Positions 1-15,189 of a stretch of DNA of 64,000 bases are shown here, one piece after another. The notes under the pieces were generated by a model. That model worked only from the letters and a program-made list of their open reading frames with translations. It did no database searches and was not told where the DNA came from. Each line of letters begins with the position of its first letter. The stretch's first letter is position 1. The translations under genes were made by a program, and so were the position numbers. The stretch is from assembly GCA_963749915.1 (NCBI GenBank), contig CAVVOP010000005.1, forward strand, positions 1 through 64,000. Direction: 5' to 3'. The stretch comes from an uncultured cyanobacterium. Lineage in GTDB: Bacteria > Cyanobacteriota > Cyanobacteriia > Cyanobacteriales > Cyanobacteriaceae.

Positions 1-773
1 GTTCAATTTCTTTCCACCCTTGTTGATGAGCAAATTGAAACAACTGCACCACATCTTGGGTTTTGATTGGGATGATTTCCTTTCAACGCTAAAACATAAT
101 CTCCTTTTTGCTCGATAATAGTTTCGGCAATTTCCTTTTGACATCCCATGGCATCAATACTAACTATACTTCCTTCAATGGTAAGTATTTTTAAGAGTTC
201 GGGAATGGCAGTGATTTCCTTAGATTTAGCATTGACTTTCCTTTGTCCCAAAACTAAGCGATTTTTTGTGGCCCACGCACTTACCATATGTATTGCTCCC
301 CGACTCTCACCTCTTTCTAGGGTACTGCGTAAGCTTTTTCCATCAATGGCAATTACTTGCCCCTTCGTGATCTGAGTCACTGCCTCAATCCAAGACAGAA
401 AACATTGCTGTAATTCGTTTGGTTTTAAACGTGCAAAGAGTCTCATCAATGTATCGTGAGATGGAATTCCATGAGGTAACTCTAAAAATGTTTCTAACCA
501 TTCTTTTTTGCCATGGCCATAATTTTCAATTTCGACCCAGTTATTGGCACCACAAATCATGGCACAAATGGTGATTATTACTATATCAATAAGAAGATGA
601 TCAATACTATGTTCGGCACGAGGATCCGTTAAATTTTCAAAATGTTTTGACAAAGATGCTATTGGTGAGTTACTCATAAATTAGTCAAAATAATTACATT
701 GACTATTTATTTTCTCTCATCAACCAATTTCTTTGTTTTGCTCAATTGTTAAGTTTTGTGTGCGTTTGCCCTG
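1..773 (-). mobile_element. ISAs1-family insertion sequence, 5' part; runs off the window start; transposase frameshifted
   Basis: ORF 3-677 has ISAs1 motifs (DPR, PHGIPSHDT, IAIDGK, H-x-VSAW, IDAMGCQ). Terminal repeat CAGGGCAAACGCACAC at 758-773 (minus). Homologous-looking sequence QDVVQLFQFAHQQGWKEIE continues in another frame near nt 55-70. Confidence 0.85.
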
Positions 774-803
774 GTTCGGTTATCAGGCTTCTAAACCGTA
801 GGG

Positions 804-840
804 GTTTCAATCAATGTTTCCTGAAGGGGTTGATTGAAGG
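804..840 (+). CRISPR. Single 37-nt type V-K-like CRISPR repeat (minimal or degenerate array)
   Basis: GTTTCAATCAATGTTTCCTGAAGGGGTTGATTGAAGG has the GTTTCAA...TTGAA(A/G)G shape and length of cyanobacterial V-K repeats. Its 3' end resembles the partial repeat at 964-978. No second full repeat was seen. Confidence 0.7.
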
Positions 841-951
841 GTGATCTGAGGGGGATTAAGTAGTGCCATAGCAAGTGCGATTACTAAGAATACTAACAGA
901 GGCGATCGCACCTGTTATCTCCATGACAGGATACGAACAAAATAAATAGGC

Positions 952-957
952 TATAAT
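952..957 (+). promoter_or_regulatory. Putative -10 box (TATAAT) for the delocalised homing crRNA
   Basis: Perfect TATAAT about 6-7 nt upstream of the partial repeat AGGATAGATTGAAAG. No clear -35 element. Confidence 0.5.
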
Positions 958-963
958 CAACTT

Positions 964-995
964 AGGATAGATTGAAAGGCGCGCCTGTTTTGGGA
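964..995 (+). CRISPR. Truncated repeat plus 17-nt homing (anchor) spacer targeting tRNA-Pro
   Basis: GATTGAAAG is followed by GCGCGCCTGTTTTGGGA (979-995), 16/17 identical to the tRNA-Pro sequence GCGCGCCTGCTTTGGGA (1189-1173, minus), which is preceded by a GTA PAM. Confidence 0.9.
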
Positions 996-1017
996 TAAAA
1001 AATATTTCTCCTAGAAA

Positions 1018-1129
1018 ACGACATTAATTTGTCACTGCCATTTCAACGACAAGAATTTGTCATCACGACACTTAATTTGGCACAACGACAGGAATTTGTC
1101 ACCGATGACAATTAATTTGGCACTGTACA
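1018..1129 (-). mobile_element. Tn7-like (CAST V-K) transposon end, tRNA-proximal (conventionally left) end
   Basis: Terminal TGTACA at 1124-1129 plus five 18-19 bp repeats A(C/T)GACA-n2-3-AATTTG(T/G)CA(C/T) starting at 1018, 1046, 1065, 1085 and 1105. The minus strand reads TGTACAGTGCCAAATTAATTGTCATCGGTGACAAATT. Confidence 0.9.
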
Positions 1130-1137
1130 AGGAGCGA

Positions 1138-1211
1138 TCGGGATGACAGGATTTGAACCTGCGACATCCTGCTCCCAAAGCAGGCGCGCTACCAAGCTGC
1201 GCTACATCCCG
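1138..1211 (-). tRNA. trnP: tRNA-Pro(UGG)
   Basis: CGGGATGTAGCGCAGCTTGGTAGCGCGCCTGCTTTGGGAGCAGGATGTCGCAGGTTCAAATCCTGTCATCCCGA forms a cloverleaf with anticodon TGG. Confidence 0.97.
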
Positions 1212-1332
1212 TTACTAGCCTTACCAATCATAACCTATGTTTGAGTTGTTCGACAAGTTAAATTTTAATCAGGATACCAAAACTATCTCTCTTGAGTCAA
1301 TCCAGCTCTTTGAGCTGCCAGGGCAAACGTAT

Positions 1333-1465
1333 TTTGGTCAGGAAATTGACTCAAACATTGCTCAATTTCATCATCAAGGGCTTTAATTTGAGATTTATAC
1401 ATTTGATATAGTTGTAGTTCTTGAGACAAAATAAACAGTAATTCAGGACAATAATTTCCTGTCAA
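1333..1465 (-). pseudogene. IS110-like transposase internal fragment
   Basis: Peptide TGNYCPELLFILSQELQLYQMYKSQIKALDDEIEQCL resembles the helical mid-region of IS110 transposases; truncated on both sides. Confidence 0.55.
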
Positions 1466-1670
1466 AGCCCATTAGTGAGAAGTTAAACAAATGGGCAATA
1501 AGTCAAGAGTAAAGCAACACAAATTAACAAACGGCTCAGAGCCTTATTAATGATAAGATTTAAGAGTCTTTTCTTAAAAATTGATGCTAATGAGTAAGAA
1601 AATAAATCGAGATCATGCCAAGAAGAAACATCATCCCCTCATGGAAAATGAAGCTATTATTTCTCATTTG
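1463..1670 (+). pseudogene. IS4-family-like element end with transposase N-terminal fragment
   Basis: From 1584 reads MLMSKKINRDHAKKKHHPLMENEAIISHL, resembling N-termini of cyanobacterial IS4-family transposases, then breaks off. Confidence 0.45.
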
Positions 1671-1755
1671 TCTGATTATTATTTCCGAACTTCCCCCTTT
1701 GACAAAAACGAAAACCTGTGCTGTGTAAAGTTTTGAACCACTTATCTCCCCCTAT

Positions 1756-2235
1756 TTACTGGGGACAAATTAAGGAAATCTCCACCAAATCTAATGCCTT
1801 TTGTTGTAATCGTGTTGGTCGAGTAATGGTCTGGAAACTAGACTTTCCCTGAGCCAAATTACATTCTACTTCCACAAGACAAATTGTCCCTAAATCTTCT
1901 AATAAAGTCCGAAAACTATGTAGGGGATAATCATCTTTATTCCTTTTTTTTCTGTCTTTTAACTCGGCTGATTTACTCCGAGATGCTCTCACTATTTCTT
2001 TATATTTATTTTCTGTGTCCTCATCTTCAAATAATAATGATTTTAATGCTTTTTTCAAATGCCATTCCACATAATAAGCCAACATACATAAAAAAATATG
2101 AGCCTTAACTCTATCTCCTTTGTAGTGATAAAACGGATTTAACTAATTCATTAATCTTATTATTTGTTAAAATTCCTCTATCTGTTACCCATACCACATT
2201 GGTGACCCCAAAACGATTTCTTACCTTTTCAATAT
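1756..2235 (-). pseudogene. IS1634-family transposase, internally deleted fragment
   Basis: Fragments VVWVTDRGIL and DRVKAHIFLCMLAYYVEWHL...HSFRTLLEDLGTI...PTRLQQKALDL are typical of IS1634. The segment between them is missing. Confidence 0.75.
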
Positions 2236-2439
2236 TGACTGTCCACAAATCTTAAGAAAACCTTGAATTTACATGGGTACAAGCGAACTAAATTTATGAG
2301 GCTCTAAATTAGAACTGATATCGACTAGGAACGCAATCGGCTCTCTAGCCCAGTTAACATTTATAGAAAGAAAAAAACCATTAATTATTTTCAGTACTCA
2401 TCGGAATTTTAAACCCTGGTTCATTTACGTACCTGTCCA

Positions 2440-3933
2440 CTAGTATCCTAAATCGACAGCGATACGATGGGCACAACTGAAACCAGAAAAAGCCACTGCA
2501 TTTAAACCCTGTCCGGGGAATGTACTGTCACCGACACAATAAAGATTTTTAATAGCAGTGCGATTGAAAGGCATTGATAATAAACCCTTAAGTCGCTTGG
2601 CCGGAATGGGTCCATAAGTACCATTCATCCGTCCTAAAAATCTTCTATGAGTTCGAGGAGTGCCGATTTCCATATAATCTAAACCGGCGTCTAAGCCAGG
2701 GAAAATAGCCTCTAAACGTTCAATTAAACACCCGGCAGCCTCCTCTTTTTTATACCGATATTGTTGAGGAGATAAACCTTCCCAATATTCCATCGAGCTA
2801 GGGGTGAAAGCGTGGATGATATGATAACCTTCAGGTGCTAAACTGGGATCTAATAGGGTAGGAATCGAGACGAAAGTAGTACCCTGTTCAGCTTCCAAAT
2901 TACCCCATTTGTCTAAAATTATATGATGACATTCGGGATTATGGGCTAAAACTTTGGCTTCGACTCCTAAATGTAGGCTTAAAAAGCTAGGGGATTGTCG
3001 ATAATTTTTTTGCCATTTTTCTTCCGCCTCCGGTTTTTGTGTTTTATCGATTAATTTATCGAAGGTATCCCAACGGGTAGCATTGGAGACAATTTTTTCC
3101 GCAAAATATTCTTTCCCGTCAGCTAATTTTACCCCCACGGCTCGGTTATTTTTAATAATAATTTCTATTACCCTTGCTTGATAACGAATTTCTCCCCCTA
3201 ATTTTTCCAATCCCTCTGCTAAAGTTTCCCCTATTTTACCGACTCCTCCTTTGGGATAGTTGATACCACCATAATGGCGATCGGAAAATACCATTCCAGC
3301 ATTAATCATGGGGGTTAAATCTGCGGGGACAACAGACCAACAATAACACTCCATATCAATAAATTTGAGTAATTCACGGTTTTTGATATATTTACGGGCA
3401 ACATCACCCACATTCAAAGGTAAATATTTCACCAATCCGAGACAGGATAAAGGATGTTGGAAAAACACACGGGTTAAGTAACGGATTTCCTCAAGAGAAA
3501 GTAACTCCATCGAATTGAGACAGTTAAACACCCGCCAACACTCATCATAAAAACCCTTGATACCCTTTTGTTCTTCAGGGAAACGGTTATATAATTCTTG
3601 TAAAAACTGATCATAATCCCGATGAACTTTGAGATCTAGGTTATTGGGTAAATGATAATGAATTTGTACAGGATCCCGGATCGTTTCCATTGTCCTATTA
3701 ATGGCTGATAAGGCACGGGTTAGTAAATTAGTAGTCCCTTTTTCCCCAAAACCGAAAATCATCGAGGCACCAACATCGAAACGATAACCTTCCCTTTCAA
3801 AATAACCAGCACTGCCACCGGGAATAAGATAGCTTTCTAAAACTAATACTTTGATTCCTTTTGCGGCTAATTGGGTTGCTGTAACTAAACCGCCAATACC
3901 TGAACCAATGACAATGACTTCATACTGACTCAT
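2440..3933 (-). CDS. crtH: Carotenoid (prolycopene) isomerase CrtH/CrtISO
   Basis: GSGIGG FAD motif, FDVGASMIFGFG, C-terminal GDSTFPGQGLNAVAFSG. Confidence 0.92.
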   Translation of the reverse strand: MSQYEVIVIGSGIGGLVTATQLAAKGIKVLVLESYLIPGGSAGYFEREGYRFDVGASMIFGFGEKGTTNLLTRALSAINRTMETIRDPVQIHYHLPNNLDLKVHRDYDQFLQELYNRFPEEQKGIKGFYDECWRVFNCLNSMELLSLEEIRYLTRVFFQHPLSCLGLVKYLPLNVGDVARKYIKNRELLKFIDMECYCWSVVPADLTPMINAGMVFSDRHYGGINYPKGGVGKIGETLAEGLEKLGGEIRYQARVIEIIIKNNRAVGVKLADGKEYFAEKIVSNATRWDTFDKLIDKTQKPEAEEKWQKNYRQSPSFLSLHLGVEAKVLAHNPECHHIILDKWGNLEAEQGTTFVSIPTLLDPSLAPEGYHIIHAFTPSSMEYWEGLSPQQYRYKKEEAAGCLIERLEAIFPGLDAGLDYMEIGTPRTHRRFLGRMNGTYGPIPAKRLKGLLSMPFNRTAIKNLYCVGDSTFPGQGLNAVAFSGFSCAHRIAVDLGY

Positions 3934-15087: not shown

Positions 15088-15113
15088 TTTTTGCTACAAT
15101 ATGTGATTATTCT

Positions 15114-15186
15114 GGGGAATTAGCTCAGTTGGTAGAGTGCTGCGATCGCACCGCAGAGGTGAGGGGTTCGATTCCCCTATTCTCCA
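15114..15186 (+). tRNA. trnA: tRNA-Ala(CGC)
   Basis: GGGGAATTAGCTCAGTTGGTAGAGTGCTGCGATCGCACCGCAGAGGTGAGGGGTTCGATTCCCCTATTCTCCA; anticodon CGC. Confidence 0.95.
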
Positions 15187-15189
15187 TGT

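Follow-up and report, generated by a model that had tools for sequence, protein, structure and literature searches.

A probable homing crRNA gene of a type V-K CAST, retained on what is most likely a transposon remnant beside tRNA-Pro(UGG)

The short module at positions 952-995 is, with high confidence, a homing crRNA gene (an anchor, delocalised or truncated repeat-spacer unit) of a type V-K CAST whose left end lies at 1016-1129. It was found in the first 64 kb (positions 1-64000) of contig C5, hereafter the window, of a 34-contig, 4.69-Mb assembly (G000) with 100% marker completeness and 2.09% contamination. A truncated repeat, a 17-nt spacer, a GTN PAM, a left end facing the target and a spacing of 60 bp are all present (Table 1). 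The guide is of a kind already described, the V-K anchor crRNA of papers from 2021-2023, and what is new is one more member, carried on a decayed transposon.

Table 1. Features at the guide locus and its surroundings, in window coordinates
Feature	Position	Strand	Remarks
ISAs1-like IS, partial	1-773	-	ORF 3-677 encodes a truncated DDE transposase (224 aa); the start of the contig falls within the IS
CRISPR leader 3' remnant	774-803	+	truncated by the IS; ~25-30 nt homologous to leaders of relatives
37-nt V-K CRISPR repeat, single copy	804-840	+	degenerate tail, GAAGG replacing GAAAG
tRNA-Pro-like 16-nt stretch	923-938	+	14/16 identity to tRNA-Pro 1143-1158
TATAAT -10 box	952-957	+	6 nt ahead of the truncated repeat; predicted transcription start ~963-965
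Truncated repeat AGGATAGATTGAAAG	964-978	+	15 nt, directly 5' of the 17-nt spacer
Anchor (homing) spacer	979-995	+	17 nt
Transposon left end	1016-1129	+	five TnsB-site-like direct repeats and terminal TGTACA (1124-1129)
Candidate 5-bp target-site duplication	1130-1134	unstranded	AGGAG, from sequence
tRNA-Pro(UGG), intact, attachment site	1138-1211	-	ARAGORN; Rfam RF00005, 69.5 bits
Anchor protospacer	1173-1189	-	16/17 match to spacer
PAM GGTA (GTN = GTA)	1190-1193	-	5' of the protospacer on the minus strand

The spacer pairs with positions 1189-1173 of the tRNA-Pro(UGG) gene as an inverted repeat with 94% complementarity, and its sole mismatch, at position 10, sets T against C of the tRNA-sense strand, corresponding to an rU:dG wobble in the crRNA. 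The sequence of the spacer occurs, at two mismatches or fewer, at just two sites in the 64-kb window, the guide and the protospacer, and at none in 100 shuffles, and a genome-wide blastn-short search with the 17 nt returned no additional match of at least 16/17. Between PAM and terminus the gap is exactly 60 bp (1130-1189), with the left end facing the target and the insertion point 8 bp beyond the tRNA 3' end. The left end contains the direct repeats D1 (1016-1034, 1044-1062 and 1083-1101) and D5 (1067-1083 and 1107-1123), and shares 78-96% identity with the ends of elements in relatives. An Rfam scan of window positions 1-3000 found nothing besides the tRNA. Much of this geometry had been set out in a preliminary description, whose 16/17 match with a mismatch at position 10 is confirmed from the sequence and by a repeat search; the GGTA that it placed ahead of the protospacer on the minus strand lies at 1193-1190, the TATAAT just 5' of the partial repeat is where it was reported, and the distance of 60 bp from PAM to terminus (1189 to 1130) is correct, the TGTACA itself being the last six bases of the left end.

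The last 11 nt of the truncated repeat are identical to the tail of the array repeat of a second CAST in this genome, on contig C22. The single full repeat upstream is homologous to the 37-nt array repeats of G005, G006 and G001, and no extra copies of it were found elsewhere in the genome. In the alignment that supports the leader remnant, only the leader-proximal repeats of G006 and G005 align from query positions 6-9 (window 779-782), the remaining repeats aligning from positions 26-31 (window 799-804); the remnant was also judged by eye against the leader sequences of relatives. Leader remnant, repeat, guide (964-995) and left end all lie on the plus strand, and the IS is inserted in the leader, directly ahead of the remnant. 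The tRNA-like stretch at 923-938 falls in a block (~910-938) that is also present upstream of the G017 guide, which targets tRNA-Thr, and it may be left over from an earlier attachment site.

The truncated repeat is an exact partner for the tracrRNA of intact homologues. In G001, G005 and G006 a CTGAAYCACC hairpin in the tracrRNA region is followed by AATCTATCC, which reverse-complements without a mismatch the nine bases preceding GAAAG in the window truncated repeat, GGATAGATT. The available part of one report (PMC12416283) describes a second anti-repeat at the tracrRNA 3' end, in a position matching that of AATCTATCC. Pairing with the cognate tracrRNA had been proposed as a check in the preliminary description; the cognate tracrRNA is absent, and the check succeeds by proxy through this perfect 9-nt complement with the 3' anti-repeat of the homologues. 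We located the anti-repeat by covariation instead of naive duplex energies. Across 24 distinct loci, the anchor paired with the tracrRNA anti-repeat better than the array repeat did in 17, equally well in 6 and worse in 1, counting G·U as a pair, with the loci mutually related and one of the 17 (L039) representing a misdetected anti-repeat. The truncated repeats of anchors are usually perfect or near-perfect complements, and array repeats of the same elements have an internal mismatch. The portion of the V-K CAST literature that was searched, which excludes Saito 2021 and all supplements, contains no statement that anchors pair better than arrays.

The layout recurs widely in other cyanobacteria. 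A search with a single Cas12k query yielded only one true relative, and a family search was used instead; of 401 genomes sampled from the class, 73 had Cas12k. We surveyed the 4 kb downstream of 40 full-length Cas12k matches from other cyanobacteria for GAAAG (at most one mismatch) followed by a 17-mer matching a site 57-717 nt downstream with at most two mismatches. Such an anchor unit was found in 36 of the 40 regions, the misses being L041, L046, L061 and L048, the last with only 1.1 kb available. As tallied by hand, 22 of the 36 spacers match perfectly, 13 have one mismatch and one has two, all mismatches falling at positions 6-16 and none at 1-5; the PAMs, also counted by hand, were GGTA (21), GGTT (8), AGTG (4), GGTG (1), AGTT (1) and GTTC (1), giving GTN in 35/36. 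The distance from PAM to TGTACA was 43-72 bp with a median of 60, based on the 21 of 36 loci with an exact TGTACA between guide and protospacer. The window values lie at the centre of these distributions.

ShCAST-type elements are said, in work by Saito and co-workers from 2021 (as cited in PMC9798831 and PMC11656645), to encode a delocalised short crRNA outside the array that targets a chromosomal homing site beside a tRNA. The window guide is likewise encoded outside the array, with a tRNA-adjoining site as its predicted home. In their available parts, Hsieh and Peters (2021; 10.1101/2021.02.06.429022) and Ziemann et al. (2023; PMC9938897) describe units with a 17-nt spacer, a 12-13-nt truncated repeat, a GTN PAM and 46-82 nt between PAM and left end, for which a mean of 62 nt is given elsewhere (PMC12416283, seen in part). 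The Tn7-CRISPR-Cas12k truncated repeat-spacer units of Hsieh and Peters share with the window the GTN PAM and the perfect or near-perfect protospacer match; the accessible text reports no conserved motif outside the unit, whereas the window clade has an invariant TATAAT 6-7 nt upstream, and the window element, unlike theirs, has lost its genes. The anchor spacer and R* of Ziemann et al. (PMC9938897), as far as the available text describes them, combine 17 nt with a preceding truncated repeat of ~12 nt, GTN and a spacing of 46-82 nt, within which the 60 bp of the window falls. The AnCAST array is reported to be promoterless and co-transcribed with the tracrRNA, whereas the IS of the window closes off such read-through and the guide has a -10 box of its own. 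The atypical-repeat homing guides of type I-F3 CASTs (Petassi et al. 2020, as summarised in the accessible part of PMC11406308) are also self-targeting, mismatch-tolerant and kept off the array, but differ from the window guide in their Cascade/TniQ effector, full-length atypical repeat, 32-nt spacer and other att genes.

A DNA search with positions 940-1130 over 41 genomes (G000 and 40 relatives) returned homologues of this stretch, and the clade has eight members: the window and copies in G001, G003, G005 (two copies), G006, G008 and G017. Their cassette reads TATAAT-N6/7-(A/G)GAT(A)GATTGAAAG, followed by the spacer. TATAAT and most positions of the repeat, including the GATTGAAAG tail, are invariant in all eight, and variation is concentrated in the 6-7-nt discriminator, the upstream sequence and the spacers. 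Six different spacers target tRNA-Ala, Met, Thr, Val, Pro(CGG) and Pro(UGG) genes, and those of the relatives fit the adjoining tRNA at 17/17 for Thr(CGU) and Pro(CGG), with one mismatch for Ala(CGC) and Met(CAU) and with two for Val(GAC). Directly upstream of the cassette lies cas12k in G001, G005 and G006; in the copy on contig C17 of G005 the guide is degenerate.

The homing guide in this clade seems to have a dedicated promoter, to judge from sequence conservation. That the guide has its own promoter had been suggested in the preliminary description, and the comparison supports this in that TATAAT is kept in 8/8 clade members, but a sigma-70 scan at the guide listed no promoter, finding no match to a -35 element, and no terminator. 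The perfect -10 box is placed such that transcription is predicted to begin exactly where the truncated repeat does. In the window such a promoter would be the only drive for the guide, because the IS separates it from any upstream tracrRNA promoter. Each of the 24 RNA runs found shares only 0.14-0.16 of the sampled words, approximately what the conserved portion of the tRNA would account for. That V-K anchors in general are preceded by a -10 box was considered and rejected: among 35 non-redundant survey loci, TANNNT starting at -31 to -23 was present in 12, and the background averaged 4.9 with a maximum of 11.

The mismatched spacer of the window is shared with another CAST lineage. Among 301 genomes sampled from the order, the exact 17-mer is present in two, G000 and G007, and there only in the guides; no tRNA matching the spacer exactly was found in the 301. 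In G007, which belongs to another genus, the identical spacer (at ~1501-1517 of locus L070, G007:C4:1022757-1025773) is the anchor of a CAST of the C22 type, with a truncated repeat, array repeat and left end that differ from those of the window. This anchor also stands beside tRNA-Pro(UGG), from which it differs in the same way (T/C at position 10), and its GGTA PAM lies 70 bp from TGTACA. Since two CAST lineages share the wobble-mismatched spacer, random decay of the window spacer after insertion is argued against. It is possible that guide modules were exchanged between lineages, that the spacer derives from an unsampled source tRNA, or that the wobble is tolerated or selected.

We regarded as complete an element with cas12k, a tracrRNA and tnsB-tnsC-tniQ within one pair of ends, and by this definition the window element, as assembled, is incomplete. 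The genome holds one Cas12k (NF038191, 864 bits), at C22:164324-166180, with the one TniB-type TnsC above the cut-off adjoining it, and two Mu-type TnsB matches, on C22 and C15. The C15 TnsB is part of a separate Tn7-like element unrelated to the V-K remnant, an assignment made because it is next to TnsA; the region C15:21038-27084 reads as a Tn3-family transposase, then TnsA and TnsB, up to the contig end. Outside C22, no second cas12k, tnsC or V-K tnsB was found in the 34 contigs, and there were no further V-K arrays or repeats anywhere in the genome. A Pfam TniQ search of the genome gave no matches and none in controls either, despite a weak TniQ ORF on C22, and cannot be read as showing that the gene is absent. 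The element in the window is most likely the remnant of a V-K CAST, a state not mentioned in the preliminary description, and this reading is limited by the contig break at the start of C5, which conceals any DNA beyond the IS. The truncated transposase has matches to the Pfam families DDE_Tnp_1_assoc (7e-34) and DDE_Tnp_1 (1e-11); positions 1-773 are 91% identical to C21:763451-762683, and matches to the IS end (741-776) occur on many contigs.

The second CAST, at C22:163080-178137 beside tRNA-Pro(GGG), is complete and of type V-K. From the tRNA inward its order is left end, anchor guide, an array of 3+1 repeats, tracrRNA region, cas12k, cargo, tniQ, tnsC, tnsB and right end, with cargo comprising a type I R-M system, a Schlafen/AlbA-domain protein and a YgjP-like peptidase. 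The anchor of this CAST agrees with tRNA-Pro(GGG) at 16 of 17 positions, the exception being position 7, and its GGTA PAM lies 61 bp from TGTACA. With the C22 anti-repeat AATCTTACT, the window truncated repeat forms five contiguous pairs and two more, equal to the C22 array repeats, and the C22 anchor itself forms 9/9; RNAduplex energies of truncated repeats against the C22 tracr region were no better than those of shuffles. From the pairing it is plausible that the orphan window guide is loaded in trans by the C22 Cas12k and tracrRNA.

Could the 17-nt match be an inverted repeat that arose by chance, or the duplicated att site of an integrase-type element, with no guide involved? tRNA genes are often integrase targets and the tRNA-like 16-mer lies close by, but the shuffles produced no such match, the 17 nt start exactly after GAAAG and come with a GTN PAM and the 60-bp spacing, the layout recurs in 36/40 Cas12k loci, and no integrase was found among the ORFs scanned at the site; we hold this explanation to be extremely improbable. 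The att-repeat version was rejected outright, the copy being inverted and not direct like attL/attR. It is also distinctly unlikely, though less so, that the element is intact in the real chromosome, with the rest of it beyond the IS and lost from the assembly and the guide working in cis. The contig begins within a multi-copy IS, as is typical where an assembly breaks, and the guide module and left end are undamaged. Against this, an assembly at 100% marker completeness yielded no second cas12k, tnsC or V-K-type tnsB and no other V-K repeat, the sole array repeat has the mutated GAAGG tail, and the other half of the IS is on no contig end. Moreover, the C22 CAST was assembled unbroken, so a collapsed near-identical copy is unlikely.

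A dead fossil, neither transcribed nor loaded by Cas12k and intact merely by recent history, is a serious possibility to our minds, if somewhat short of an even chance. The element's own machinery is lost, and the guide-less solo left ends of G004 and G015, together with the degenerate guide on C17 of G005, show that such remnants decay. Yet TATAAT and the full truncated repeat were preserved while the neighbouring array repeat degenerated, the spacer is identical to that of the apparently working G007 CAST, and a compatible Cas12k and tracrRNA are encoded on C22.

Under our preferred reading of the module as a homing crRNA gene, the mechanism is drawn from the V-K family. A short RNA would begin ~7 nt beyond TATAAT, its 5' end coinciding with that of the 15-nt truncated repeat, with its GAAAG predicted to pair with the internal anti-repeat of the tracrRNA and GGATAGATT with the 3' anti-repeat. 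Cas12k would then read the 17-nt spacer against tRNA-Pro(UGG) beside the GTA PAM, and TniQ, TnsC and TnsB would integrate the element with its left end leading, at a point 60 bp downstream and 8 bp outside the 3' end of the tRNA. The preliminary description had inferred that this crRNA directed the insertion. Every structural expectation agrees with that claim, which we infer for a past event only, since the element is now most likely a remnant. The 44-bp guide module on it is itself intact, and could still be loaded in trans by the C22 Cas12k and tracrRNA.

By itself the window is one more natural footprint of RNA-guided V-K CAST homing and adds little. Three side results may interest the CAST field, namely the apparent dedicated guide promoter, the better match of anchor to tracrRNA, and the identical wobble spacer in two lineages. 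They bear on the choice between homing and plasmid targeting, which the literature, in the parts available, treats as unresolved. A broader proposal, which we advance tentatively and regard as rather doubtful, is that the clade's homing guide is a self-contained mini-gene with a -10 promoter and the best partner of the tracrRNA (9/9), that guides are ranked by pairing such that homing beats the array, and that orphan guides outlive their transposon. If so, orphan homing guides could provide the second resident CAST, on C22, with one more attachment site, or could signal that the site is already occupied.

Several related elements were noted at tRNA genes in the relatives. L016 (G004) and L022 (G015) are solo V-K left ends without a guide cassette at tRNA-Pro genes, the former at tRNA-Pro(UGG) and the latter with a protospacer that, by eye, is the tRNA-Pro(CGG) site of G008. 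The G004 end lies 17 bp from the tRNA, versus 8 bp in the window, and because these distances differ the two are suggested to be separate insertion events at the same site. Beside tRNA-Ala(CGC) in G003 (L068, G003:C1, ~1777-2578) is a miniature element of ~800 bp made up of a right end bearing TnsB-site repeats, a short run of non-CAST sequence, the TATAAT-anchor cassette and a left end. It is flanked by an 8-bp ATTAGAGG repeat and encloses none of the CAST core genes. Because G003 carries two cas12k loci elsewhere, the miniature element might be mobilised in trans. The tRNA-Ala(CGC) at 15113-15187 of the window is the isoacceptor used as attachment site by the elements of G003 and G006.

A solo TGTACA end was also detected at C8:305656-305679 in the window's own genome, with 20/21 nt identical to the terminal repeat of the window. 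The six bases ahead of it, AGGAGC, are also those found just after the window left end, and IS and resolvase fragments lie on its other side. Only ~24 bp of end sequence is left, and the C8 site and tRNA-Pro(UGG) are non-syntenic, lying 0.4-2.2 Mb apart in G001, G003 and G006. This stub may be the right end of the window element after a rearrangement.
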